NCBI GenBank assembly: GCA_043815245.1
Contig: JBDRJD010000008.1
Span: 163-64,162, forward strand
Direction: 5' to 3'
Length of the DNA: 64,000 bases
From: an archaeon
GTDB lineage: Archaea; Nanobdellota; Nanobdellia; Pacearchaeales; GW2011-AR1
Both the position numbers and the translations under genes were made by a program. Position 1 is the first letter of the stretch. Every line of letters begins with the position of its first letter. The notes beneath the pieces are model-generated. The model saw only the letters and a list, made by a program, of their open reading frames with translations. It was not told where the DNA came from and did no database searches. This document shows positions 1 through 42,762 of the stretch, piece by piece.

Positions 1-1234
1 CAGGGTAAAACGCCTCTAAAAATAAATCAGCCAGCTTATCAGGGCCAGGAGCATCAAAGACAAATTCATAGCCTGAAGGATCTGAAACACAACCCTCATC
101 AGCAAGACTCCGTACCCTAACTCCTGGGGTCATTAAACTATAAACATCTCCGCTAACCCTCTCCCCAACACAATATTTATCAAAGTCTTCTGTTCCTAAT
201 TCACCTGCCGCAATTCCACAAGCACCTACATCAGACTCTAAACAATTCGTAGCTCCTAAAACAGGACTATCACAACAAACATCTCTTATATTATACTCAT
301 TAGTCTCTCCAGGATGTCCCAACCCATACAAATGTCCAAGTTCATGTGCCATTACCTCTTCATCTAAAACAGATAATCCATACACATACCTCCCCCTATC
401 CATTGCAGCCCCTTCAACAAACTCTCCATCTAAGTTTAAAGCTTCAGGGATAACTCCAATTACCTTGTCAACTTTTTTTAAAGTGCTTACATCATCACTC
501 ACTGGAAGTTTAATACCAGTCTGCCTAAAATAATACTCAAGGTTATCAAGCATGCAGTTAATCTCATCAGTCGGATTATTACAAACACCAGAATCAGTAA
601 ACAAAGTTTTATTAAACACCACCACCCCCATTAACCTTCCTGAATCAGTATATCCACTCTCTCCTAAAAATAAATCCAATCTAGAAGCTACATCATCATA
701 ATTAAAGTCACTGCCATAATCTAAGTAATAAGGAACAAAATAATACACATCTGTTGCAGTTTTCAAAGAGTTTGAAGAGTTCATAAGACTACTCCCAATT
801 CTTTTTTTAGTAGCTCCAACAGTAAGAAACAAAGACCCCCCACACTTAACCTCCCTCGCATCAGTAGTATTAGATCTAGGCAGTGCAAGATCCTTAAAAG
901 TGTAGTTACAAAGAATATTATCCAATCCCCCTGAAACATCACAATCAACCATCTTTCCAAATCCATATACTCTCCCTTCATTTTTATCAAGAAGCTGAAA
1001 ACTCGCCCTCAACTTATCTCCCCTTGAAGCATTATAACTCGCCTGATATTCCTCCTTAATTCTAAACTCACCTCCGCACTCTAAATCAACTGGGGTGGGA
1101 ATTATTCCATCATTAGGAAACCTAGCTATTCTTTTATTTTCAAAATAAGAATCAGCAACACTTATCTTAAAATCAGCACTAACTAAAGGTAAAACTAACA
1201 TTACTATTAAAACACAAATTAATAATTTTCTCAT
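1..1234 (-). CDS. Secreted zinc metalloprotease (HExxHxxGxxH, metzincin-like); C-terminus lies outside the window
   Basis: ATG at 1234-1232, one nt after the TAA (1238-1236) of the giant upstream gene. My hand translation stays open to position 1; the ORF track omits it because it runs off the edge. Signal peptide MRKLLICVLIVMLVLPLVSA. Motif VMAHELGHLYGLGHPGE is encoded near 300-350, in frame with the ATG. Confidence 0.75.
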   Translation of the reverse strand, partial: MRKLLICVLIVMLVLPLVSADFKISVADSYFENKRIARFPNDGIIPTPVDLECGGEFRIKEEYQASYNASRGDKLRASFQLLDKNEGRVYGFGKMVDCDVSGGLDNILCNYTFKDLALPRSNTTDAREVKCGGSLFLTVGATKKRIGSSLMNSSNSLKTATDVYYFVPYYLDYGSDFNYDDVASRLDLFLGESGYTDSGRLMGVVVFNKTLFTDSGVCNNPTDEINCMLDNLEYYFRQTGIKLPVSDDVSTLKKVDKVIGVIPEALNLDGEFVEGAAMDRGRYVYGLSVLDEEVMAHELGHLYGLGHPGETNEYNIRDVCCDSPVLGATNCLESDVGACGIAAGELGTEDFDKYCVGERVSGDVYSLMTPGVRVRSLADEGCVSDPSGYEFVFDAPGPDKLADLFLEAFYP

Positions 1235-1235
1235 T

Positions 1236-4200
1236 TTATGTTGACTCAAAAATATCTGGAGGGCGGATTACAGTCATACAATCAGACACCGCATCAACAA
1301 GCACCTTACTATTACCATCATCAACAAGCACTCCCTGATAACCATAATTATAATTCCCCTTACCCAAAGATGCAATTCTGCTTCCAGAATCATCATACTT
1401 CATTGCAGTTTCAGAAACTAAGTCTCCCGGCCCGCCCACAGGATCTCCATATTTCTCAATTTTCGATAATCGATTAGCACTGTCATAATTGCTATTATAA
1501 ACATCTAAAGAATCATCTAAAAGCATAGAGTGAACTCTATTAAAATCATCATATCCAAAACTCATATGATTCATCCAAGACACAGAAAGATCCTCATTAT
1601 ATCCCATATCTACTCTCTGACTTGGAGCTATCTCGCCTGCATCCCAATCCTGAACCCCTCTTAAATTATCAAGCATTCCTAAACTGTTAGTTTCCACTTC
1701 AAGGCGGTTCCAAGTATTATCTCCAAGTATATTGTCATACTCTATTTCACTTAATTCATTATTCCTATCATAGAAATAAGAAACTTTCCCATTCCAGGGT
1801 CCAGATAAGTCTACACTAGATGGTATACTCCCTGGGAGATACTGGTAACCCATTTTTAAATCCGCGCTAGAAGGATCACTACTCATAATTGTAAGTTCAT
1901 TTAATCTGCTTAAATCATCATACTTATAAGTCTCCCTTAAATTTCCGCCAACATAATGCTCATCTAATCTCCCTTCATGGTCATACCAAAACCCTTCATC
2001 CCCACACGGAGTTAAAACAGCTACCAAAAACCCATAATCATCATAAATCCAACTAGTTTCATAAGAAACACCCTCAAGAACATTCTGCCCAGCTAAATCT
2101 CTAACATCATAAGTAGCTACTGCATCAGTAAGCCTGCCATAATTATCATAATTTGTAAATGTTATAGATTTAACAACCCCATTAGAAGAAATCTCTTTAA
2201 GCAAACTTCCATCATAAGTAAAAGAAGTTCTTAAAGCACCTCCACCTGCAGGTCTCTGATAAACATCAGGATAACTAAGCATTCCAAACTCTTCATCAAA
2301 TAAAGTATCGCCTAAATCAAAGGGGATATTTGTAATGGAAGCAGTAATCCTTCCTAATGGATCATTATATTCTGCCTGACTAGTAATAAGAGGTGGTTCT
2401 AAGCAGACCACTGGAGGTTCAGCAGAAGGATTTTCTTGACATCCGAATTCGGTCAAATAACTTGTAAGAAGATTATCATGATTATCATAACTATAAACTT
2501 CTGTATTAAGGAAGTTTCCATATATACTATTATCTACTTGTCTCAACCTACCAAACGAATCAAATCTAAGTTTGCTGCTTGTCTGAGTTGAATCTATAAT
2601 TTCAATATTTCCTTCATTATCAAAAACAGTTTGTGTCCAATACTTAATTCCGTCACTGCCCTCCGCATATTCAATCTTGGTATTGCCGTCAATGAAAGTG
2701 GAGTAATCTGTTGATTTGTCTCCACCAGGAATATTATCAACTACTAAACTCCACAAAGCTCCATCCTCATTCAATCCATAAGAGTAGTCTAAATTAACTA
2801 AATAAGGGGAGGTAGATACAAGCTGGTGCACCTGACTACCATCAGAAACCGCATCATAAGCCGGAATTCCAGGAGTTACATTATAATTTTTAAGAGAAAA
2901 ATCACCATAATACGCATAATGCTCAGTAGTACCATCAGGATATTTAATTCCAAGTGGATGTCCTAAAGCAGAACTAAATTTTCTAGTAATTCTTCCATTA
3001 TCATTTATCTTGTATAGGTTTCCAAAAGAATCATACGAATAAGTAACAGTGTAATCCACTCCATCTTTAATCGGAGTCTTAACTATTTTAGTATAAAAAA
3101 GATCTGGATAAATATACTCCCTTTTAGTTTTTCCATCTGGTCCAATAATCTTTGTCGCCCTCCCCCACCCATCCCTTTCTACAGTCCATTTATTACCGCG
3201 ATCATCAGTATACGCTTTTAAAGTCCCGTCAGGATGATACTCCTGATAAGTACCATACACCATATTCTCCGCACCAGTAACATAAACTCCATCTGCATCA
3301 TAAGTATAAGTAAGTCCAACTCCCCCAGGAGAAATTGTACCTTCTAAATTTCCCACAGCATCAAAATCAATATCAGTCAACTTATCAGGACTAGCATAAA
3401 GAGTTCTATCTTTTTCAATTATAGAATCAATGTAACCTCTTGCAGTATCCCAACCATACATACTTTCAGATAAAGCCAAACCCTCACTATTTCTCACTTG
3501 TTCTGAAAGTACCATTCCATAAATATTACTACCTAGATTATTTGTATAAGTTCTGACTATCTCTCTATCGTCTTCAGATATAGAAGTATCTCCATGCATC
3601 ATTGTATTAGTAGGATACCCATAATCATCTCTCCCAGTAACTTCTGAAAAATAGGTGATAGTGCCTGCATCTCTAATTGTAGTTTTTACTTCATCAAGCG
3701 CAATCATATTTACCTCATCAGGCCAACTATCTTTATGAATAATTTCATATGTATATTCAACATCAACATCAACTTCACCATACTCAGAGGGAATTGTTTT
3801 AAATTTTATCAAACCTTCAAGCTCACCTGCATATTCATTATATATCTCATACTCTGACTCTGGAGTTTCATGCATATACCAGCCGCCTTCAAACTCTGAG
3901 GAATAATAAGACCTCGCATCATAACTAGTTCTCACACTAACATAATTTTCACCATCAAGTATTTCTTTATAATGGATACTCCCAAGCTGTGCAGTTTGGT
4001 CAGTACGTGGAGAATAACCACTCTTTGAAAGTTGTAATGAGAAATATCCACTACCATTTCTGTACAGAAGCCCACCAATACGCTCAGCTAAAGAAAAATC
4101 ATTGTAACTAAACGAACCCGCACATATACCAAATCTTTTTGCTCCTCCATAATACCACACATCACTACATGCCGGCCTCCAAGTATGCAATAGCTTATAA

Positions 4201-6695
4201 GAATCTCCTTCAGAATTAGTTATAGTTATATTTTGTAAAAAATTAAACTGGTAAGCCAATGCACCCCACTCATTACCTGAGGCCGGTACATACTGGAAAC
4301 CATATGTCCTATACAAAGAACCATCAGGGTTATAAGCAGTAATGTTTATAACCTTTTTTAATCTATTAGTTCCATTATAACCTACAGTCAAATTCTTTGT
4401 ATCATATTCAAAATCAAATACTCTTCCAGCTGAATCAACTATATTATGAATATAAGATATCTCAATATCATTTCTACTAGCTCCTAAATTATACTCATCA
4501 ACGTCATATCCAAACAGAATATCATTTCCATTAACATCTTCGATTCTAGTCAAATCCCACTTATACTTAACATCTCTACAAAAAGTTAGCTCATTTTCAT
4601 AATAATACTTAGTTCCATCTGCATAAGTTATCACCCATCCATTATCATTTTTTTCAATTTTTTCATTATTATGATTTTTTAAATAATACCTTCCCCCGCT
4701 TTCATATAATCTTTCACTATCTCCATTAAATACAAGCGAATAATTAAGCTTATTTTCATCATAACCGTCTAAAAAGTCTTCCCAATACACTCTTTCAGAA
4801 AGAGAATCTTGGTTTAAAGCAATATAACTATGGGATATATCAAACATATTATCTCCAAGATGGGAATGGTATTTATCATCAAGCCCACTCCTAAAATAAA
4901 CAGATAAATCAAAATCTAATCCTCCCTTCCCCTCAAATGAACCTAAAAGAAAGTTTTTTCTTATCTCATTAGTATAAACATTAAACCCATCTCTGACAGG
5001 CCCCTTACTTTCATTAAAATTAGGCCCATATAAATTATAAAAAAGTGCGCACTGCACAGGATAACCTTCCTCGCTACAATCTAATACCCAAAATGCTGGT
5101 TTTCTACTATAATCGATATCATCTGAATTTGGCCAAAAAACCTTGTCAGAATTATAATAGATTCTATTCAGATCACTACTCCAGAATATTGGTGTCTGGT
5201 AAGAACTTCCATTTGTAACCTGCTGCCTATTACCTCCTCCTGAGTCCATAGTCCATATATGATATTGATAATCAGCAAGAACCGTCCTATCATTAGTTTC
5301 AGGAGCATCTTCTTTTGACGCATACGCAATCATTCCCCCCCCAGGACTGTGTTTAAAAGACTGAAAATCAATACGGTGTCTGTTAGGAAAAACATTTTCA
5401 ACAATAAATTCATAACCGATATCATTTATCAAAGCATATCCTGCAAGATCTTCTTCATTAACTCCCGCACTACTATCAAATACATACCCATAAATCGCTC
5501 CCCCTGCATCTACAACAGAACTATGATGAATGTGCTCCCTATAATCATCAAAAGTATACTGGCCCGCATTTCCTCCTGAATCAAGAGTCCATACTACATC
5601 ACCATATGTTGGCCACAAAAATCTTTCTCCACACACAATATAATCTTCTCCTTCTACAGCTCCAGGTGGAAGAAGATGCTGTGGGGGAATAGTCCTATAT
5701 AACTGGGAGGAAGTTACTAAAGTAAAAGCACCACCAGGACCATAATTAACACTCATCCACATAGAAGGCCCTATACACGGAGGAACCCATCCTTCAACCT
5801 CAGGTCTAGGCCGTCTTATAACATCATTATTAAGAAACTCATAACTAGTATCATTTGCATCACACTCATCAGGATTGCTACCGCCCCCACAATCTAAAAC
5901 CATATAATAATGACTTGCCTCATCATAATATAACACATCTGTACCTATAAATCCCCTAGCATAAGTCTCACATGAATGCATTGAACTCTCACAATATTTA
6001 AGTCTTCTTAAATTAGTTCCATCTGCATTCATTATCCACAGATCAGTTGCAGGATGTCTCCCCTCACCACGCACCCTTCCAGAAAAGGCAATCTGCCTTC
6101 CATCAGAACTCAATTGCCTGTGATGAGTCCACACATTTATAAAAAAGTCTTCGAAAAACGGACCATATCTTTCAGTTATTGTCTCATTTACTTCAACAGG
6201 TCTGTAATAAATTCCTCTACGAATAGGAGTCTTATCAATTCCATTAACTGCTAAACAAGACCCCTCCATGTCACTAGAACCCGACACCACCCCCACATCA
6301 TCTGCCCCTACAGAAACTTCATCTTCCCACCCTGGATAAATATCACTTTCATTATACATCTCCTCAAGAAGCTCCCCACCCCAGCCCACCACACCTTCAT
6401 AATTCTCTTCAACAACCTCCTCCTCCTCCGCCTCCTCTTGATAAATATCATCATCATACTCTCCAAACCCATTCAACCAATCAGCATAATCTTGTGAATC
6501 GTCCACCCCCACCACCCCCTCTCCTGAATCATCAGCTATCTGCCTTCCAGTAATCTTGGCAACATTTTCCTTTACTAAACTTAAACTTAAATTAAAAATC
6601 TGATATTTATAAAATACAAAAGAAAACAAAATAATTGCTAATAAGAGTACAATAGCCACTACTAATCGTGCATTAGTCCCCTTCCTCTTTTTCAT
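1236..6695 (-). CDS. Giant membrane-anchored surface protein with PD40/TolB-like propeller repeats and a long YD (RHS-type) repeat region
   Basis: 1819-aa ORF. Signal anchor ARLVVAIVLLLAIILFSFVFY, then an acidic E/D linker. PD40-like units (SSDGRQIAFSGR..DLWIMNADGTNLRRL; HIWTMDSGGGNRQQVTNG). More than 12 YD units (YTYDADG, YSYDSFGNLYKINDNGRITRKF, FDSFGRLRQVDN, NYDNYGRLTDAV, YKYDDLSRLNELT, NYDSANRLSKIEKYG). Confidence 0.8.
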   Translation of the reverse strand: MKKRKGTNARLVVAIVLLLAIILFSFVFYKYQIFNLSLSLVKENVAKITGRQIADDSGEGVVGVDDSQDYADWLNGFGEYDDDIYQEEAEEEEVVEENYEGVVGWGGELLEEMYNESDIYPGWEDEVSVGADDVGVVSGSSDMEGSCLAVNGIDKTPIRRGIYYRPVEVNETITERYGPFFEDFFINVWTHHRQLSSDGRQIAFSGRVRGEGRHPATDLWIMNADGTNLRRLKYCESSMHSCETYARGFIGTDVLYYDEASHYYMVLDCGGGSNPDECDANDTSYEFLNNDVIRRPRPEVEGWVPPCIGPSMWMSVNYGPGGAFTLVTSSQLYRTIPPQHLLPPGAVEGEDYIVCGERFLWPTYGDVVWTLDSGGNAGQYTFDDYREHIHHSSVVDAGGAIYGYVFDSSAGVNEEDLAGYALINDIGYEFIVENVFPNRHRIDFQSFKHSPGGGMIAYASKEDAPETNDRTVLADYQYHIWTMDSGGGNRQQVTNGSSYQTPIFWSSDLNRIYYNSDKVFWPNSDDIDYSRKPAFWVLDCSEEGYPVQCALFYNLYGPNFNESKGPVRDGFNVYTNEIRKNFLLGSFEGKGGLDFDLSVYFRSGLDDKYHSHLGDNMFDISHSYIALNQDSLSERVYWEDFLDGYDENKLNYSLVFNGDSERLYESGGRYYLKNHNNEKIEKNDNGWVITYADGTKYYYENELTFCRDVKYKWDLTRIEDVNGNDILFGYDVDEYNLGASRNDIEISYIHNIVDSAGRVFDFEYDTKNLTVGYNGTNRLKKVINITAYNPDGSLYRTYGFQYVPASGNEWGALAYQFNFLQNITITNSEGDSYKLLHTWRPACSDVWYYGGAKRFGICAGSFSYNDFSLAERIGGLLYRNGSGYFSLQLSKSGYSPRTDQTAQLGSIHYKEILDGENYVSVRTSYDARSYYSSEFEGGWYMHETPESEYEIYNEYAGELEGLIKFKTIPSEYGEVDVDVEYTYEIIHKDSWPDEVNMIALDEVKTTIRDAGTITYFSEVTGRDDYGYPTNTMMHGDTSISEDDREIVRTYTNNLGSNIYGMVLSEQVRNSEGLALSESMYGWDTARGYIDSIIEKDRTLYASPDKLTDIDFDAVGNLEGTISPGGVGLTYTYDADGVYVTGAENMVYGTYQEYHPDGTLKAYTDDRGNKWTVERDGWGRATKIIGPDGKTKREYIYPDLFYTKIVKTPIKDGVDYTVTYSYDSFGNLYKINDNGRITRKFSSALGHPLGIKYPDGTTEHYAYYGDFSLKNYNVTPGIPAYDAVSDGSQVHQLVSTSPYLVNLDYSYGLNEDGALWSLVVDNIPGGDKSTDYSTFIDGNTKIEYAEGSDGIKYWTQTVFDNEGNIEIIDSTQTSSKLRFDSFGRLRQVDNSIYGNFLNTEVYSYDNHDNLLTSYLTEFGCQENPSAEPPVVCLEPPLITSQAEYNDPLGRITASITNIPFDLGDTLFDEEFGMLSYPDVYQRPAGGGALRTSFTYDGSLLKEISSNGVVKSITFTNYDNYGRLTDAVATYDVRDLAGQNVLEGVSYETSWIYDDYGFLVAVLTPCGDEGFWYDHEGRLDEHYVGGNLRETYKYDDLSRLNELTIMSSDPSSADLKMGYQYLPGSIPSSVDLSGPWNGKVSYFYDRNNELSEIEYDNILGDNTWNRLEVETNSLGMLDNLRGVQDWDAGEIAPSQRVDMGYNEDLSVSWMNHMSFGYDDFNRVHSMLLDDSLDVYNSNYDSANRLSKIEKYGDPVGGPGDLVSETAMKYDDSGSRIASLGKGNYNYGYQGVLVDDGNSKVLVDAVSDCMTVIRPPDIFEST

Positions 6696-6792
6696 TAAAG
6701 AAACACTGTTTTTACAACTTAAATAGTTTTCTCAGACATAGAAAGCTTTAAAAAGGAAAGACACTACTTAATAGTAACAAAACTAAAGGGAA

Positions 6793-7188
6793 ATGAAAAT
6801 GGATGGGATAGGATTTTATAAAGTATTAATAAACCCAAAAGCAGAATTTGATCAGCAAGAGCTATGGAAAGAAGGGATTTATACAAGCTTAAGAGAAGAA
6901 TATGATCTACCTGTAGGAGCTATATTTTACTTTAGGGGTTTATTTGGAAAACTAGCAGATACTACACAAAGAGAAACAGATCCAGAAAAAATAGAAAAAA
7001 GATACATAGAAGCAATACTTGAACCTCTAAGAGAAGGAGAAAAAGAAAAAAGACTTGGACCGACAGATTTTCAAAGATGCTTAGAAAGACTGGATATTAG
7101 AGGTTTAACAAAACTTTTAAAATCTGAAGAAAGCGCTTTCTTTAAGCCGGAAATAAAAACAGATTTAGAAAACCTAGCCTCACTTTAA
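6793..7188 (+). CDS. Hypothetical cytosolic protein (131 aa)
   Basis: ORF with ATG start and no recognisable motif. Its 3' end overlaps the 3' end of the convergent 7180-8598 gene by 9 nt. Confidence 0.45.
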   Translation: MKMDGIGFYKVLINPKAEFDQQELWKEGIYTSLREEYDLPVGAIFYFRGLFGKLADTTQRETDPEKIEKRYIEAILEPLREGEKEKRLGPTDFQRCLERLDIRGLTKLLKSEESAFFKPEIKTDLENLASL

Positions 7189-8598
7189 TTCACCATAACG
7201 TCTAATTTCTCCTATCCAATCAGAAAAACTAGGATGCATTTCTTTTGACCAAATAACAGCTTCTCTTGCATTTGGCAAATAACTTGTTGCTTCTAAATAC
7301 TCAGCTTCAATAAAAGCCCGATTTGCAGGAGTATCTCCCCCTAAAAATTCAAGTGCTTTAGGATAATCTGGAGACAATTGATACTGTGACCAAGCCCGAG
7401 CATAAGTATTCCCACTTCTCTGAGTACTTGCATGCATATAATCAAAGATATTTTCAATAACTATAGTCTCTCTTTGAAGAAGTGTAAAATCTTCTGCATT
7501 ATCAATAAGCCACCTAGGAAGATGGTGAGCCTCATAGTTAGAATGTACACTATGGAAGACCTTAGCAGGATAACCATTGCCTTGCAAAACCATTCTAGTC
7601 TGTGGATTTTGCTGAAACATCCATTTAGTAAATTTCTCTGCCTGATCAAATCCCTGATTTGACTTAGCAAGATCATGGCCCAAAACAAAACTAGGATCAA
7701 TACCCCCTTGATTAAATCTCATATTCAAAGCTAAATCTACCTCAATAATATGAAGCCTCATATTCTGGGGAATGTCCCCTGCATGCTGGCCAATAAACTT
7801 ATTAGGTAGTCTTCCAGTTCTAGTAGCAATCGCATCAACTACTTCACTATAATGTCTACCAGAAACTCCTGCAGGAGTAGCCAATCCTCCCACTGCAAAA
7901 AACATTGTAGCTAGATCTCCACTTGCTAAATCAACTATATCTATTTGGTTTGAGGGGTCGCTAAGAATTGCATATGAAGTCGCAGCCCAAATCTCGGGGT
8001 GATAAGCTAAATAAGCCATACCTGAAACCGACTGATAAGCCATATAACTTCCACCAAGTATCATTAAACCTCCAGCAGTTCCAACTCCAGCCCCATAAGC
8101 AGCGTTATTAACAAATCTTTGATAACCTGCAGGATCTCTTATAGCCTCTTTTTGAGCTCCAGCAAAAGTACCCCCCCAAACAGACCCATGCCCAGTGCTA
8201 CCTGCCCACGCAATTCCAATATTAGACAAATCTGTCAGAACTGTTTCTAAAGGATCCATAACATAAGTGACTTCAACCTGGTTTTCATAACCCTCAGAAT
8301 CTAAGTACTCTTTAGCAGCTTCCTGCTGCTCCCTTGGAGAAATAAGAAACTTCTTTCCCTGAACAATTCCAGAAGGCACTCCCGCATGCAGGGCATTAAG
8401 AGTTATATCTGAATCAGGTATTTCTAGAAAAATGCATTTTCCATCAAAACAAGAATGAAGTGGACCACAATCTTCCCTTTGAGTAGCTACAGTGCAAGTT
8501 TTCTCTACAATATAAACATCCTCTCTTACTTGCTCAGCGCAAACTAAACTAGTAAGAATTAAAACTAATAAAAATGCACAAATTCCTCTTTTTATCAT
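7180..8598 (-). CDS. Secreted protein of unknown function with a Gly/Ala-rich hydrophobic central region
   Basis: 472-aa ORF. Signal peptide MIKRGICAFLLVLILTSLVCA, a Cys-containing N-domain, and a G/A-rich stretch (AYGAGVGTAGGLMILGGSYMAY..FFAVGGLATPAGVSG). The roughly 230-aa C-terminal domain has no motif I recognise. Confidence 0.6.
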   Translation of the reverse strand: MIKRGICAFLLVLILTSLVCAEQVREDVYIVEKTCTVATQREDCGPLHSCFDGKCIFLEIPDSDITLNALHAGVPSGIVQGKKFLISPREQQEAAKEYLDSEGYENQVEVTYVMDPLETVLTDLSNIGIAWAGSTGHGSVWGGTFAGAQKEAIRDPAGYQRFVNNAAYGAGVGTAGGLMILGGSYMAYQSVSGMAYLAYHPEIWAATSYAILSDPSNQIDIVDLASGDLATMFFAVGGLATPAGVSGRHYSEVVDAIATRTGRLPNKFIGQHAGDIPQNMRLHIIEVDLALNMRFNQGGIDPSFVLGHDLAKSNQGFDQAEKFTKWMFQQNPQTRMVLQGNGYPAKVFHSVHSNYEAHHLPRWLIDNAEDFTLLQRETIVIENIFDYMHASTQRSGNTYARAWSQYQLSPDYPKALEFLGGDTPANRAFIEAEYLEATSYLPNAREAVIWSKEMHPSFSDWIGEIRRYGELK

Positions 8599-8638
8599 TT
8601 ATCTCACCTATACTTTATACTTTATATATATTATTAAC

Positions 8639-9064
8639 TTAATCCTTAATCCTAACAATCTCTCCCTCAAAATCTAACTCAATAAACTTCTTCACCTCTC
8701 CACTCCTGTAATCCTCACACTGATTTTCAGGAAAGTCATCAAAATCACTTCTAGGAACATGCACAATATCCACAGCATAGTCACTTACCACTCCTAAACA
8801 CTGACTAGAAAAATTCATCCCTTCTGCCTTTTTCTTATCATATAAACTAAATGCAAGCTCAATCGCCGCCTGTTGACGCACTACTTTCAAAGACTTAGAA
8901 ATAGGATATCCGTGCTTAACATAAATTCCTCTTTCATCTTTAATCCATGAATCTTCAGAAGGTATCTTAAGCAAAATAAAAATCACAAATCCTCCAATCA
9001 AAGCAATAACTAAAATAATAAAAGTAATTGTAAAAAGCCCTCTTTTAATCTTCAAGCCTCTCAT
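8639..9064 (-). CDS. Membrane-anchored hypothetical protein
   Basis: The track ORF starts at an alternative TTG (9079). I prefer the ATG at 9064-9062, which is preceded by GGAG. One TM helix (LFTITFIILVIALIGGFVIFILL). The start overlaps the gatD 3' end by 20 nt. Confidence 0.5.
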   Translation of the reverse strand: MRGLKIKRGLFTITFIILVIALIGGFVIFILLKIPSEDSWIKDERGIYVKHGYPISKSLKVVRQQAAIELAFSLYDKKKAEGMNFSSQCLGVVSDYAVDIVHVPRSDFDDFPENQCEDYRSGEVKKFIELDFEGEIVRIKD

Positions 9065-10304
9065 TAATTTCTCCTGCAAAATTTTTAAGCATCATTTCCT
9101 TAACTCGTCCTCTCCAAGAAGAATGTCCCAACACCCATCCCAATTTCACTAATGCAGTCTCTGCAAGCATATCCTCTAAAAAAATAATTCCAGTCTTCAT
9201 TAGCTTTCTTCCGGGAGAATAAACTAACGGGTCTAATCTACCATAAACAGTCTGGGCAGCTGCAACAATTATTAAGCCATTATCAATTGCCTTCTTAATA
9301 CTGGGCAATAAATTTTTCCTAGCTTCATCAATTGCTAAATGACCTAAAGCAGCTACCTCAATTACAACTGCTTCATATCTCTGTCCTAAAAAATCAAAGA
9401 TTTCAGGGTCCATCCCAGGATAAAACTTAATCAAAGCAACTTTATCATTAAAACTAGTATCTAACTTGACCTTCTTACTACCCCTTACATTATGCTTAGA
9501 AAGTATCTCAATTTTATCAGGAAAAATCTTAGCAATTGGTTTTGTATTAATTGCTTTAAAAGCATCTCTTCTTGAAGTATGCATTTTCCTCACCTTACTG
9601 CCCTTTAAAGCATAGCAAAAATCATCATTTATGCTTCCATGACCTACAAGCATTACTTCTGCAATATCAGAAATTGCAGCCCTCGCAGCACACTGCAAAT
9701 TCAGACTTGCATCTGAACTTCCTCTATCTGAACTCCTCTGAGCATATGTTAATACAACAGGTTTATTCAAATCTTGTAAAAAGAAGCTTAAAGCAGCTGA
9801 AGTGTAATGTAAAAAATCAGTGCCATGAGTAATTATGACTCCAGCAACATTTTTATCATTTAGGCTTTCTGCAGCATTTTTTGCAATCTCCTGCCAGTCC
9901 TTAAAATCCATATTCTCACTAGCTTTCATAAACGGAACTTTTATCTTTCGGATATTAACAAGCTCAAGAAGTTCAGGATAAAACTTTAATAGCTCCTCGG
10001 GAGAAGTCAGCCATTTCACTCCCCCAGTTTCAGGGTCAATCCTCGAAGAAATAGTCCCGCCAGTCATAATAATATCAATAGAAGGAAGCTTTTTATTTTC
10101 CTTTAACTTTATTTTTTTATCTTGCTTCTTTAACTCCTTAATCAATTCAGTTTCAGTTATATCTTCTTTTTTAATCCCAATATTATATCCAGAATCAAGC
10201 TTAACTAAAATTATCCCAGTTTCATGACTTTCAAGTAAAATCCCTTCAATATCCTCTTTTACAGTTGAAATTCTAACTCTATCTCCAGCTTTTGGTTCAG
10301 CCAT
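9045..10304 (-). CDS. gatD: Glutamyl-tRNA(Gln) amidotransferase subunit D
   Basis: 419 aa. GatD-type N-terminal domain (GDRVRI..GILLE..IILVKLDSGYNIGI) followed by an asparaginase-type domain with IIMTGGTISSRIDPETGGV. Confidence 0.85.
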   Translation of the reverse strand: MAEPKAGDRVRISTVKEDIEGILLESHETGIILVKLDSGYNIGIKKEDITETELIKELKKQDKKIKLKENKKLPSIDIIMTGGTISSRIDPETGGVKWLTSPEELLKFYPELLELVNIRKIKVPFMKASENMDFKDWQEIAKNAAESLNDKNVAGVIITHGTDFLHYTSAALSFFLQDLNKPVVLTYAQRSSDRGSSDASLNLQCAARAAISDIAEVMLVGHGSINDDFCYALKGSKVRKMHTSRRDAFKAINTKPIAKIFPDKIEILSKHNVRGSKKVKLDTSFNDKVALIKFYPGMDPEIFDFLGQRYEAVVIEVAALGHLAIDEARKNLLPSIKKAIDNGLIIVAAAQTVYGRLDPLVYSPGRKLMKTGIIFLEDMLAETALVKLGWVLGHSSWRGRVKEMMLKNFAGEINERLED

Positions 10305-14649: not shown

Positions 14650-14665
14650 TTTAAACCTTGCGATT
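14650..14665. repeat. 16-nt direct repeat, copy 2 (tttaaaccttgcgatt)
   Basis: Exact match to 12945-12960. It lies in the 52-nt spacer between the propeller gene stop (14664) and the PRTase start (14611). Confidence 0.8.
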
Positions 14666-16919
14666 AGTAGTATCTAGGGAAAACATTTGTTCCAGCAGGA
14701 AGCTCTACACTTGAAATCTCATCTAAATCATCTAAGTCATTAGCCATAATCATTGCATTTGAAAAAGTATATAACACATCATCCATATACAAACTTCTCT
14801 GTACATTTTTATCTCCGTAAAAGTAATATCCACTTTTCTCAAATATCTCCTGATCAGTATAATGCGTTACTCTTCCTTTTAATTCAAATCCATCTTCTAA
14901 ATTAAGATTGTACACATAAGCTCCTTGATATACATACCCTCCATATTGGTTGTCAGCGGTTTTTTCTCCTTTAATTTCAGCTAGTAAAATAGGGAGCACT
15001 AAGAGCTCCTTTTCCCTGTCAAATAAAAATGCCTTATGATCATATAACGCATCTGAATCAGTTCCTCTATCTCCAATTACAACCTTATGCAACTCTGCCG
15101 GATTTTCTACATCTGAAACATCAAATAGGGCCATCTTCACACCTTGATACCACGCAAAATCCAACTGCCTCCTATCCTTTAAATCCTCCCCAGCATCAAC
15201 CGCTTCCTTACCAATTCCTATAATATGGTTCTCATCATACGGGTGCAAATAATCTGAATATCCTGGAATTTTTAGCTTTCCTAACACTCTTGGATCTTCA
15301 GGATCTCCCAAGTCAATCACAAAAAGCGGATCAACTTTCTTAAAAGTCACAACATACCCTCTCTCGCCCATAAATCTCACTGAGAAAATTTTTTCTCCAG
15401 GAGCAAGATCTTCTAACTCTCCAATTAATTCCAAATCTTCATCTAACACATAGACATTATTTTTTGAAATACCCTCCTCACGCCCCCATAAACTACCAGA
15501 AGTGGTGGCAATCCTAAAATTCTCATCGTACTCATCCATTGAAAACTGATTAAGAATATGTCCTTTTACTTCTCCAGAAGCAACATAATTTATCTCATCT
15601 TTATCAATAGATATCTTATGAATTATAGTAGACTCTTCATCCATATTCAGAGCATCTTCATACCAGCTAGCATACTGCGTATAAGTAGTGTATATATTAT
15701 CTTTAGAAACATAAATATTCTGAGTCATTCCATTTAACACTGCTTTTTCATTAGTATTCCCATTATTTACATTTACACTGAGAATAATAGTATACTGGAA
15801 GTTGTAATCCTTAATATCAGTATAATAAATCTCAGTTGGTTCAATTATGTCTACTTCTCCGTTCTTTTCAACTGAAGGCAGAACCGGTTCTTCTGAAACA
15901 TACTGATTAGCAATAACATAAACATAATTTCCAATCATTCTAGAATCAAAGTAATCTCCTGTAACCGACACCTGGTCTTCTAACTCCGGATCTTCTCTAT
16001 CTGAAATATCATATATGCTAACTAAAGTCCTGGACTCCCGATAGTAAGGGGGGACCACACAACCTATAGCCATACACCTTTCTGCAGGGTAAGGTACAGC
16101 AGTATAATCAATTGAAAACACGATTAATTTATCATCATTTATAAATATCTCTCTAACAGCACTGTCATTAAATTCAATTTCTGACAATATCTCCATGTCA
16201 TCAGCAGGATAAGCATTAATTATTATCACCTTACTTCCAGACACAACATAAATATACTTTCCATCATTCTTGATAATATCCGGTTCATCTACTCCTTCCA
16301 CTTGGATATTTGTAGTTGAATACTCTGAGGCTGAACTTGAATCTACAGCCTTAGCAGCCCCTGCACCAGCAGCAGCTGAAAAAGTTTCCTCCATAATTCC
16401 ATAGCCTCTTGAACTTAAAGTATTATCTTCTATATATTTTTTCATTTCAGCTAAAGAAGTGAACACATTAAGGTTATCAATTTCCTCTATTGGCTCGGTT
16501 GGACCCACAATGGGTAATTGGTCTTGAGGAACCCATAAAGCTAATAAAATGATTATAACAGCGGCCATTGCAGCTATTAAAGGAAGAATTGCTTTTAGAG
16601 AGGTCATACTTGGCCTAGTAGACCTAGGAGAGATAACTATATGCTTTTTAGCCAGCTTGTATAAATCAATTTTCTTCCCTTTTCTACTCCAGAAAAAGTT
16701 CTTTGCTTTTTCTACCAAACCAGAATCAAGCAATTTTTTAAGATTATATTCAACAGTATTAATTGGGATTCCTAATGCTTCAGAAATTTCCTTTTCACTC
16801 TTTTCCGTATTGTCTGCAAGGTAATCTAAAATCTTCTTGCAAGTCTTATTGCCGATGACTTCCGCTATCTTCTTACTTCTTTCATCATCCATCCCCATAA
16901 GGATAAATTTGTCGTCCAT
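14664..16919 (-). CDS. ArsR-type wHTH, TM helix and extracytoplasmic beta-propeller fusion protein (COG4880/Beta_propel-like)
   Basis: 751 aa. wHTH KKILDYLADNTEKSEKEISEALGIPINTVEYNLKKLLDSGLV. TM helix ILPLIAAMAAVIIILLALWV. Propeller-family signature STTNIQVEGVDEPDIIKNDGKYIYVVSG. Confidence 0.7.
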   Translation of the reverse strand: MDDKFILMGMDDERSKKIAEVIGNKTCKKILDYLADNTEKSEKEISEALGIPINTVEYNLKKLLDSGLVEKAKNFFWSRKGKKIDLYKLAKKHIVISPRSTRPSMTSLKAILPLIAAMAAVIIILLALWVPQDQLPIVGPTEPIEEIDNLNVFTSLAEMKKYIEDNTLSSRGYGIMEETFSAAAGAGAAKAVDSSSASEYSTTNIQVEGVDEPDIIKNDGKYIYVVSGSKVIIINAYPADDMEILSEIEFNDSAVREIFINDDKLIVFSIDYTAVPYPAERCMAIGCVVPPYYRESRTLVSIYDISDREDPELEDQVSVTGDYFDSRMIGNYVYVIANQYVSEEPVLPSVEKNGEVDIIEPTEIYYTDIKDYNFQYTIILSVNVNNGNTNEKAVLNGMTQNIYVSKDNIYTTYTQYASWYEDALNMDEESTIIHKISIDKDEINYVASGEVKGHILNQFSMDEYDENFRIATTSGSLWGREEGISKNNVYVLDEDLELIGELEDLAPGEKIFSVRFMGERGYVVTFKKVDPLFVIDLGDPEDPRVLGKLKIPGYSDYLHPYDENHIIGIGKEAVDAGEDLKDRRQLDFAWYQGVKMALFDVSDVENPAELHKVVIGDRGTDSDALYDHKAFLFDREKELLVLPILLAEIKGEKTADNQYGGYVYQGAYVYNLNLEDGFELKGRVTHYTDQEIFEKSGYYFYGDKNVQRSLYMDDVLYTFSNAMIMANDLDDLDEISSVELPAGTNVFPRYY

Positions 16920-40314: not shown

Positions 40315-42762
40315 CTACTCAATGAAGATAGCAGGCTTCCCAGGCTTAGCCTTTTTTGCTTTATTCTCAGGGTCATATTTATTCTTATCAGATACAGAAT
40401 AAACAGTGATTCCTTCAAGATCCTTATAAAATTCAATTTCTTTTGGAAGAACATACACATAAGTCTTACTTTCTTGTTTGTTCAGTATCCTCTTAATATT
40501 ATTAATGTCCTGTCTTAGTTTATCTACAGCTTCTTCTTGTTTGTCAAATTTTTCTTCAATCTTCTTCTCATCAAATTTAGGCCAGCACTCACTTGAAAGT
40601 AACTTTTTATTTCCCAACTTGTTCCATAGCTCTTCAGTAATATGCGGGCAAAAGAGATGAAGCAATTTCAAGAATCCTGCCAAAATGTCTTTACTCTCCT
40701 TTTCACTTAAGGAATCAAACAACTCTCTTATCTTAATTATTGCAAAATTATATCTAAAAATTTCAATATCCTCAGTCACTTCTTTAACAGTTTTATTAAA
40801 CTTACTCTCAATCCTCTCACTAGATTTCCCAATTTTAACTGTGTCAAAATAACTTATAACCTTATTAATAAATCTCATGCTTCCCTGAATCCCCTTATCG
40901 CTCCACCCAATGTCTTTATCGGGAGATGCAATCGACATTAAAAACAGCCTAGCAGTATCAATGCCATACTTTTTACTAATCTCTTCAGGTAACACCACAT
41001 TACCTCTGCTCTTAGACATAACATAACCATCGCTTCCATGTAACATCCCCTGATTAAACAACCTAGTAAAAGGTTCATTAAATTTCACATATCCCAAGTC
41101 TCTCAAAGCCTTTGTAAAAAACCTTGCATAAAGCAAATGCATACACGCATGTTCCGCCCCGCCAATATACTGATCAACAGGCAGCCAATAACCAATTTTC
41201 TTTTTGTCAAGAGGCTCCTTAGTATTTTTATTGTCAGCGTATCTCATGTAATACCAACTTGAGTCAAAGAAGGTATCCATTGTATCTGTCTCTCTCCTCG
41301 CCCCACCCTTACAATTAGGACATTTCACATTAACAAATTCCTCATTAGTAGCAAGCGGATTTCCTTTGCCAAACTTAACTTTTTCTGGCAGTTTTACAGG
41401 GAGATCTTTCTCAGGAACAGGCACAACTCCACATTTAGCACAATAAATAATGGGTATGGGAGTTCCCCAGTATCTCTGCCTTGAAACCAACCAGTCTTTC
41501 AACTTGTAGTTAACCGTTTTTTTACCATGTCCAATTTCCACAGTATAATCTGCTACTGCCTCTTTAGCCTTAGCCGCATCCATCCCACTAAACTTCCCCG
41601 CATTTACCATTGTTCCAACAGATAGGTCTGTATAAGCCTGGTTCATCTTCTTAGGATCCAACTTTTTCCCGGGGGGATTAATTACCGGATAAAATCCCAA
41701 ATCATACTTTTTAGCAAATTCAAAATCTCTCTGATCATGTGTAGGCGTGCACTTTACAATTCCAGTACCATAATCCATAATTGCAAAGTTAGCAATAAAC
41801 AAAGGCATCTTCCTATCATTTAAATGATTTTTTACATACCTTCCTATAAAAAATCCTTCTTTCTGTTTATCTGTATTTGTAGGGTCCTCAATCCTAAATC
41901 TTTTGCACTTTTCAATAAATTTCTTTGCGTCTTTTTCATATTTTGTCCCCTTAACTAGCTCTAAAACAATAGGATGCTCAGGTGCAATAACCATAAAAGA
42001 CGCACCATAGGTAGTATGGGGCATAGTAGTAAATGAAGAAAGTTTCATATTCATTCCTTCCACTTCCCACTCTTCAATAACTCCTTCACTTTTACCTATC
42101 CAGTTTTTCTGCATAATCTTAATTCTATCCGGCCACTCTAGCTTATCTGTATACTCCAAAAGCTCATCAGCATACTCTGTAGTTTTTATAAACCACTGTT
42201 CTAAATCTTTAATTTCAACTTCAGTGTCGGCATGTCTCCAACACCTTCCATTGTGTACCTGCTCATTTGCAAGCACAGTATCACATTTCTTACAAAAGTT
42301 TACTGGCGCCTTTTTCCTATACACTAGACCCTTTTCTAAAAATTTTAAAAAGAACATCTGATTCCATTTATAATAATTAAGGTCGTGGCTCATTAGCATC
42401 TTATCCCAATCATAACTCAATCCTAGCCTCTTCTGCTGTTGTATAAAACTTTTTATAGCTTTCTCAGTATAAGTCTTAGGATTTTCCTTAGCCTGAATAG
42501 CAGCATTTTCAGCAGGCAATCCAAAAGAATCATACCCCATAGGGTACAATACGGAAAACCCATTCATTCTCTTAAACCTAGCATAAATATCTCCCACAGT
42601 ATAATTAAAAGCATGACCCATATGCAAACCACTCCCTGAAGGATAAGGGTACATCTCAAGAACATAAAACTTCTTACCCCCCTCTTTAGACTTGAAAACC
42701 TTGCTGGTTTCCCATTTATCCTGCCATTTTTTCTCTATCCTAGCAAAATCCACTTTTTCCAT
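40315..42762 (-). CDS. leuS: Leucyl-tRNA synthetase, bacterial type
   Basis: 815 aa. YPYPSGSGLHMGH (HIGH), GYDSFGLPAENAA, VLANEQV..GRCWRH, VMSKSRGNVV (KMSKS). Colinear with bacterial LeuRS from the N-terminus. Confidence 0.9.
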   Translation of the reverse strand: MEKVDFARIEKKWQDKWETSKVFKSKEGGKKFYVLEMYPYPSGSGLHMGHAFNYTVGDIYARFKRMNGFSVLYPMGYDSFGLPAENAAIQAKENPKTYTEKAIKSFIQQQKRLGLSYDWDKMLMSHDLNYYKWNQMFFLKFLEKGLVYRKKAPVNFCKKCDTVLANEQVHNGRCWRHADTEVEIKDLEQWFIKTTEYADELLEYTDKLEWPDRIKIMQKNWIGKSEGVIEEWEVEGMNMKLSSFTTMPHTTYGASFMVIAPEHPIVLELVKGTKYEKDAKKFIEKCKRFRIEDPTNTDKQKEGFFIGRYVKNHLNDRKMPLFIANFAIMDYGTGIVKCTPTHDQRDFEFAKKYDLGFYPVINPPGKKLDPKKMNQAYTDLSVGTMVNAGKFSGMDAAKAKEAVADYTVEIGHGKKTVNYKLKDWLVSRQRYWGTPIPIIYCAKCGVVPVPEKDLPVKLPEKVKFGKGNPLATNEEFVNVKCPNCKGGARRETDTMDTFFDSSWYYMRYADNKNTKEPLDKKKIGYWLPVDQYIGGAEHACMHLLYARFFTKALRDLGYVKFNEPFTRLFNQGMLHGSDGYVMSKSRGNVVLPEEISKKYGIDTARLFLMSIASPDKDIGWSDKGIQGSMRFINKVISYFDTVKIGKSSERIESKFNKTVKEVTEDIEIFRYNFAIIKIRELFDSLSEKESKDILAGFLKLLHLFCPHITEELWNKLGNKKLLSSECWPKFDEKKIEEKFDKQEEAVDKLRQDINNIKRILNKQESKTYVYVLPKEIEFYKDLEGITVYSVSDKNKYDPENKAKKAKPGKPAIFIE

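Follow-up and report, generated by a model that had tools for sequence, protein, structure and literature searches.

How DPANN archaea recognise and attach to their hosts is poorly understood, and their genomes are rich in giant orphan surface proteins. Here we ask what one such protein, made of propeller and YD/RHS repeats and encoded directly upstream of a protease, might do. The gene pair lies on the minus strand at one end of a stretch of 64,000 nucleotides (hereafter the window; positions 163-64162 of contig JBDRJD010000008.1) in an archaeal assembly (GCA_043815245.1) of 921 kb in 45 contigs with 85.7% completeness. An earlier reading of the bare letters, the original prediction, had proposed a membrane-anchored PD40 and YD/RHS protein that is co-transcribed with a secreted metzincin-like protease and is a candidate host-attachment or contact-dependent effector module. 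Profile searches and alignments showed the giant protein to be a remote, intact and re-modelled homologue of a family of split TcB-like shells found in the same phylum.

Kinship of the giant protein with split TcB-like shells

The giant open reading frame (ORF) was uninterrupted over 1819 amino acids (aa). RHS_repeat (PF05593) matched the whole protein with 27 bits and three stretches on residues 691-1250 with 36.5 bits (cut-off 22), and TIGR01643 matched it with 20.7 bits (cut-off 15.8). The strongest repeats were at residues 1111-1257. A hidden Markov model of the YD unit, built from canonical RHS proteins, found units at residues 715 to 1746, which correspond to about 1458-4553 on the DNA and agree well with the predicted region of roughly 1300-4600. 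A search of a library of 1.84 billion representatives gave 726 matches, almost all of them RHS proteins, and Tse5 was the only sequence match in the PDB. The repeat region takes up about 1100 aa, and by these profile matches the giant protein can be assigned to the RHS/YD-repeat superfamily.

The N-terminal piece matched PD40 with 23.4 bits (cut-off 20.9). In the same library, phmmer matches to this region had E values between 6e-12 and 3e-7, and Pfam confirmed the matched proteins as multi-PD40 propellers. Two PD40 sites were clear (residues 192-237 and 446-518) and the remainder of residues 150-560 was too divergent for a count of blades; the region may form a complete propeller. The protein has a lone hydrophobic stretch at about residues 10-36, preceded by MKKRKGTNAR. 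Because no obvious signal-peptidase site follows it, this segment would be a type II signal anchor, with the N-terminus inside and the bulk of the protein outside. The predicted combination of an anchor with PD40 and YD/RHS modules was borne out. Of the profile searches that had been proposed as a check, those for RHS_repeat and PD40 passed their cut-offs, and the RHS core had no match in the giant protein.

The original prediction had described YD/RHS shells as uncommon in archaea, which does not hold for this phylum: RHS_repeat matches above the cut-off were found in 55 of 400 high-quality genomes, nearly always in open frames of 1400-3400 aa. Among the papers searched, none linked DPANN with RHS repeats. 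We compared 20 RHS loci (L098-L117) from 19 genomes of the phylum. Their giant proteins were TcB-like, with SpvB, an FG-GAP propeller, TcdB_toxin_midN and RHS repeats; they carried cleavable signal peptides and no terminal DPxGL core. A separate ORF with a signal peptide was present nearby in 18 of the 20 loci, while the core was fused to the shell in one locus and the remaining locus was cut by a contig end. These small ORFs, mostly of about 250-480 aa with a few up to about 1000 aa, start with ..YDANGNL..YNSLNQL and are sometimes arrayed, in up to four copies (L112). They matched PF03527 (RHS) and the C-terminal end of TEN_YD-shell weakly, and we therefore take them to be the lid, or core, of the cocoon encoded as separate genes. 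Several of the loci also had a conserved ORF of about 570 aa upstream of the shell. The earlier domain reading stood; what it missed was this phylum-wide context of split TcB-like shells.

Several lines of evidence connect the giant protein with these shells. In phmmer searches, several DPANN shells matched residues ~646-805 and ~993-1230, with E values from 5e-9 (the shell of L109) to 1e-5, and a profile of the N-terminal 420 aa of the shells matched residues 651-805 with 33 bits (E 1e-12). In a multiple alignment, residues ~571-835 were colinear with the SpvB-like domain of the shells, such that GKGGLDFDLSVYFRS in the giant protein aligned with GVNGLxPxxxxxYNS, and WVITYADGTKYYY...KWDLTRIEDVNGNDILFGY with WxVTxxDGTKYRF...KWxLDxVxDxxxNxIxYxY. 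The Pfam model for SpvB gave no match in the giant protein. A plug of the DUF6531 type was considered and rejected, as a profile made from bacterial RHS matches was not significant on the giant protein, whose plug appears SpvB-like instead.

At the other end, the C-terminus could be aligned through the last YD repeats, and it ends about 30-40 residues past the point at which lid-less DPANN shells (such as L098 and L107) terminate or give way to decoration domains. The giant protein thus keeps the SpvB-like start and about 800 aa of YD hairpins and stops at the usual breakpoint of the family. Compared with canonical bacterial RHS proteins, the giant protein stops just short of the ..DxLGS..YxYxPFG..RARYYDPxxGRF..DPxGL core. 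The RHS-associated core with its aspartyl autoprotease (TIGR03696, PF03527, ..DPxGL) was absent from it, the alignments ending before the core, and no RHS core or toxin was matched by Pfam in its last 569 aa or last 200 aa. The protein stops about 40 residues beyond the last YD hairpins, reading ..VLVDAVSDCMTVIRPPDIFEST, and this tail was disordered in the model. Pfam, TIGR03696 and the alignments thus agreed with the earlier statement that a core end and a C-terminal toxin are missing. Since the absence of the core corresponds to the normal shell/lid breakpoint of the family, what is odd about this locus is that it lacks a lid gene and an FG-GAP gate and has an N-terminal PD40 region and a membrane anchor, and the label of non-canonical given to it was right.

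The relatives' FG-GAP propeller of about 330 aa and most of their TcdB_midN had no counterpart in the giant protein, where about 125 residues are found instead; neither Pfam model, FG-GAP or TcdB_midN, matched it. Instead of the internal gate propeller, the giant protein has a membrane anchor and a PD40 module at its N-terminus. In summary of the comparison, the locus shares with the DPANN split shells a giant exported YD/RHS protein, an SpvB-like start, a breakpoint before the RHS core and a tightly coupled gene of about 400 aa with a signal peptide next to it. The differences are, on the side of the shells, a cleavable signal peptide, the internal FG-GAP propeller, TcdB_midN and the lid gene, and, on that of the giant protein, a membrane anchor, an N-terminal PD40 region, no FG-GAP, no lid and a zincin as neighbour. 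The sequences of the two resemble each other no more closely than E 1e-9 to 1e-5. A precomputed Pfam label, PF26549.1, is attached to the giant protein in a protein database.

No lid, core, toxin or TcA-like gene was visible in the assembly. The lid profile, which detects the lids of other genomes at E<1e-20, had no match in this genome, and TIGR03696 returned nothing real. The search of the genome for TcA with VRP1 was also empty, though it was run without a positive control.

Structure models were made with AlphaFold2 for residues 620-1819 (model 1, 20 sequences) and for residues 566-1765 (model 2, 33 sequences, including SpvB-bearing proteins). Model 1 had a predicted local distance difference test score (pLDDT) of 52.8 and a predicted template modelling score (pTM) of 0.35, with confident regular beta-hairpins at about 1109-1774 and the last 45 residues disordered. 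Model 2 reached a pLDDT of 58.2 and a pTM of 0.42; residues 580-835 were confident (70-92) and residues 837-1015 were below 50. When both models were compared with the PDB by Foldseek, the top 46-48 matches were exclusively RHS effectors, teneurins or a teneurin-like protein, TcB-TcC complexes and SGS1. The E values went down to 9e-25, yet the TM-scores were just 0.10-0.19. The confident N-terminal segment matched the N-terminal domain of SpvB (6p0x) with a TM-score of 0.49, a root-mean-square deviation of 6.5 A and E 6e-5. The modelled hairpin architecture matches cocoons locally; a closed shell was not seen in either of these low-confidence models.

Three known systems share parts of this architecture. 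One is the TcB-TcC (BC) cocoon of bacterial Tc/ABC toxins, together with the polymorphic toxins of the TcdB/TcaC class, which have been described along with metallopeptidase toxin tips (Zhang et al. 2012, PMC3482391). TcB-TcC (PDB 4o9x, 4igl; Foldseek E 1e-14 to 1e-8) likewise has an SpvB-like N-terminal domain followed by a YD cocoon, but the giant protein lacks the integrin-like gate and the TcC/RHS core autoprotease, and no toxin or TcA was found. For the YD region, the best matches, both in structure and in the PDB sequence search, were Rhs effectors of the type VI secretion system (RhsA 7q97, Tse5 8cp6, Tse15, RhsP). They differ in that the giant protein lacks a PAAR/VgrG-binding N-terminus, a DUF6531 plug match, the core and the toxin, and in that it is archaeal and predicted to use Sec export. 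Teneurins and a bacterial teneurin-like protein (PDB 6fb3, 9ifo; PMC5851990, PMC13018210; Foldseek E down to 8e-22 against the model) have a similar overall layout of type II anchor, beta-propeller and surface YD shell. The propeller of the giant protein is, however, of the PD40 and not the NHL kind, and FN-plug, TTR, ABD and Tox-GHH are missing; the Pfam models TEN_YD-shell, NHL, FN-plug and ABD/Tox-GHH had no match in it. The resemblance to teneurins is architectural and does not establish membership. Proteins of the RHS/TcB-like cocoon kind are already known, and what is notable here is the re-arranged architecture and the orphan status.

The downstream zincin and its coupling to the giant gene

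As predicted, the protease gene follows the giant gene after a single nucleotide, with the TAA-A-ATG junction spanning 1238-1232 of the minus strand, and the encoded protein has its own signal peptide and the motif HELGHLYGLGH. The two genes are probably co-transcribed or translationally coupled. The protease ORF leaves the window and is complete on the contig, where its last two codons and TGA occupy positions 155-162 (TGA at 155-157); the contig terminates 154 bp beyond the gene. Another ORF starts 60 nucleotides past the protease stop, outside the window (contig 94-2, minus strand; MKFQNLLGWILLITMGLL.. / MKFQNLLGWILLITMGLLRLLKSRLSMTMIR..). It has a hydrophobic N-terminus and is cut by the contig end, and the operon may continue there.

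Cleavage was predicted at MRKLLICVLIVMLVLPLVSA|D, which would leave a mature protease of 43 kDa with an isoelectric point (pI) of 4.5 and 12 Cys. The C-terminal 248 aa gave eight weak Pfam matches, all to zincin or metzincin families (Reprolysin_2 to _5, M10, M54, M57, M66) and all centred on HExxH, below the cut-off; the best was Reprolysin_5, with 18.4 bits against 27. The N-terminal ~145 aa had no Pfam match, and the protease reached the cut-off of no curated metzincin family (M10, M12, M54, M57, M66 and others). Like metzincins (M10, M12, M54 and related), it is Cys-rich, apparently secreted, and combines HExxHxxGxxH with a candidate Met-turn of the form SxMxP downstream. It differs from them in falling below every family cut-off and in having no homologue in the PDB or among 5.8 billion clusters; the 60 relatives, the five genomes with the closest prolyl-tRNA synthetase (ProRS) and its own genome likewise contained no homologue, and no exact copy was present on other contigs. 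Judged by its motifs, the protein is best described as a secreted orphan zincin that has a metzincin-type site and a putative fold of that kind. We also considered whether it could be a lid gene, and rejected this, as the lid profile and hhalign aligned signal peptides only. Tox-MPTase1-5 and Tox-HopH1 Pfam models gave no match to it at E<=10.

The giant protein was similarly isolated. No close homologue below E 1e-30, except itself, was found among the 5.8 billion clusters (word-indexed) or the 1.84 billion representatives (exhaustive), and no match was obtained in a genome-contig scan, the 60 relatives, five RHS-bearing relatives or the five closest-ProRS genomes. With no detectable homologue of either gene in relatives, the original prediction fails its own test of a gene pair that is kept together in relatives, and the argument for a functional link between the two comes from their 1-nucleotide spacing.

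How much this absence means depends on the relatives available. The window encodes an archaeal GatD and an archaeal-type ProRS. The GatD beside the locus was 54-60% identical in family members, and the closest ProRS sequences (59-65% identity) were from metagenome-assembled genomes labelled Woesearchaeota, Pacearchaeota or Nanoarchaeota, which identifies the organism as a DPANN archaeon. In two genomes of the same family (G002, G003), ProRS was just 38% identical, against up to 65% in those other genomes. The compared relatives may thus be distant, or ProRS types may differ within the family. A genome of the same genus (G001) had no matches to the GatD, ProRS or leucyl-tRNA synthetase (LeuRS) of the window and was therefore uninformative for the gene pair. 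With relatives this distant and these markers missing from G001, the absence of the gene pair in relatives is weak evidence.

The GC content of both genes, and that at third codon positions (GC3), was within about 1.3 standard deviations of the genome means (genome GC, 36%), and there was therefore no sign of a recent foreign origin of the gene pair. Recent horizontal transfer was rejected on these values.

Functional readings of the locus

A role of the locus in host attachment, or as an effector, is hypothetical. The reading that we favour, tentatively and with somewhat less than even confidence, is that the giant protein is a surface-displayed binding scaffold of cocoon and propeller, and that the zincin is a processing or surface-remodelling enzyme. 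The N-terminal anchor would hold the giant protein on the outer side of the archaeal membrane, where the propeller and an empty or open YD cocoon would be displayed for binding or adhesion toward a host or neighbour cell, by analogy with teneurins, in which a toxin cocoon has been put to use in adhesion. The zincin, expressed together with it, would be secreted separately, and it might trim or release the anchored protein, for example in its acidic linker, or digest surface proteins of the partner cell.

Several points weigh against this reading. Just 154 bp of contig follow the protease gene, and genes for lids and toxins could lie just beyond; repeated cassettes often break assemblies, and the present one is just 85.7% complete. 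The end of the giant protein exactly at the breakpoint of the split systems suggests a shell that may be built to take a lid. The models did not demonstrate closure of the cocoon (pTM 0.35-0.42, TM-scores 0.10-0.19), the Pfam matches of the protease were all below the cut-off with no homologue in the PDB or the libraries, and no homologues of either gene exist in the comparison and hence no conserved gene pair to compare.

We rate as rather unlikely the further-reaching claim of an independent archaeal domestication, in which a Tc/RHS shell would have become a permanently anchored, toxin-less receptor convergent with teneurins and accompanied by a dedicated secreted metzincin for host attachment or remodelling.

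A serious though doubtful alternative is that the giant protein forms the shell in a functional split RHS (TcB/TcC-like) toxin system, with lid-toxin cassettes and immunity genes located past the end of the contig and with the zincin as an accessory, whether a peptidase for release or processing or another effector. The point at which the giant protein ends, common to lid-less DPANN shells, would be explained in this way. So would the contig end that comes right after the operon, 154 bp past the protease, with the start of a signal-peptide-like ORF at contig position 94: a lid gene is found at 18 of the 20 relatives' loci, often in repeated cassettes that would break an assembly. RHS systems have been described with metallopeptidases of both kinds, releasing peptidases and toxins (Zhang et al. 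2012, PMC3482391). On the other hand, an 86%-complete assembly yielded no lid or RHS core with a profile that detects lids at E<1e-20 elsewhere, and the slot usually held by the lid in relatives is taken here by a non-homologous gene. The FG-GAP gate is also absent, and the protein appears to be anchored and not secreted.

It is improbable that the giant gene is the non-functional relic of a TcB-like gene in decay, minus gate and lid, with the adjacent protease incidental. Its extreme divergence and the loss of several family modules would fit such decay, and without homologues there is no evidence of purifying selection. The frame is nevertheless uninterrupted over 1819 codons (5.4 kb) in an AT-rich genome, ordered N-terminal modules have been gained, and the composition is native. 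In small DPANN genomes, a stretch of 5.4 kb of dead DNA is seldom retained.

To our knowledge, shell and cargo are a single polypeptide until autoproteolysis in all solved systems, which argues against a separately encoded one here. That the zincin itself is a cargo or toxin that replaces the lid gene, with the cocoon packaging or delivering it in trans, is very improbable: its position, size (~400 aa), signal peptide and tight coupling are all like those of the relatives' lid genes, and metallopeptidase toxin domains do occur on RHS proteins (PMC3482391), but its likeness to lids is in the signal peptide alone, with neither a YD nor an RHS-core segment by which it could attach to the shell, no Tox-MPTase family match, and a mature protein that is 43 kDa and acidic.

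The locus presents the RHS cocoon, a common weapon scaffold of the phylum, in a stripped-down form: anchored, gate-less and apparently lid-less, and joined by a new propeller and a protease of its own. If functional as the displayed scaffold that we favour, it would be a natural case of a toxin container re-used as a surface receptor, a route also proposed for animal teneurins, and a concrete candidate for studies of host contact. If lid genes do lie beyond the contig end, it would simply add a highly divergent example to the split RHS toxin loci.

Feature coordinates and neighbouring genes

Table 1. Features of the gene pair and its upstream region, in window positions, with the size or the evidence for each.
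Feature	Position	Strand	Size, evidence or remark
Giant gene	1236..6695 (incl. TAA stop)	-	1819 aa, 205 kDa, pI 4.4; PD40 + SpvB-like + YD/RHS, probably membrane-anchored
Hydrophobic segment, residues ~10-33	6597..6668	-	hydropathy; sole one in the protein
Acidic low-complexity linker, residues 55-130	6306..6533	-	composition (37% D+E)
PD40-type (TolB-like) beta-propeller region, residues ~150-560	5016..6248	-	Pfam, phmmer
SpvB-like cocoon start (plug and first hairpins), residues ~571-835	4191..4985	-	profile, phmmer, alignment, AlphaFold2, Foldseek
Low-confidence segment, residues ~837-960	3816..4187	-	at the position of the relatives' ~330-aa FG-GAP propeller
TcdB_midN-start remnant (FKTIPSEYG...), then YD/RHS hairpins, residues ~963-1780	1356..3809	-	profiles, alignment, models
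C-terminal tail after the last YD hairpins, residues 1781-1819	1239..1355	-	without RHS core or toxin
TAA-A junction, giant gene stop / protease ATG	1235..1238	-	1 nucleotide between; sequence
Putative secreted zincin gene, 413 aa	1..1234	-	window holds residues 1-411
Predicted Sec-type signal peptide MRKLLICVLIVMLVLPLVSA, residues 1-20	1175..1234	-	sequence, hydropathy
HELGHLYGLGH (HExxHxxGxxH), metzincin-type zinc site, residues 297-307	314..346	-	sequence
SLMTP, candidate Met-turn, residues 366-370	125..139	-	inspection of the sequence alone; 59 residues after the third His
TATA-like archaeal element TATTTAAG	6718..6725	-	read from the sequence; ~25-30 nucleotides before the giant-gene ATG

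Upstream of the giant gene there is a spacer of 97 bp and then a divergent ORF of 131 aa. The element TATTTAAG in this spacer may be the promoter of the giant gene, in which case the leader would be short or absent.

The divergent ORF is one of three in 6793-9079 (131 aa on the plus strand, a 472-aa secreted protein and a 146-aa transmembrane protein), which adjoin the conserved GatD. None of the three had a Pfam match, and the 131-aa and 472-aa ORFs had no homologue in the relatives searched. Together with the gene pair, the three ORFs apparently form a species-specific block.

Elsewhere in the window, the LeuRS (40315-42762, minus strand) has an editing domain of bacterial type (tRNA-synt_1_2, 183 bits), and the same-genus genome G001 shows paralogue-level matches to it only, at about 30% identity. 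A 751-aa protein (14664-16919, minus strand) combines N-terminal ArsR/HTH domains with a strong match to Beta_propel (PF09826, 556 bits).

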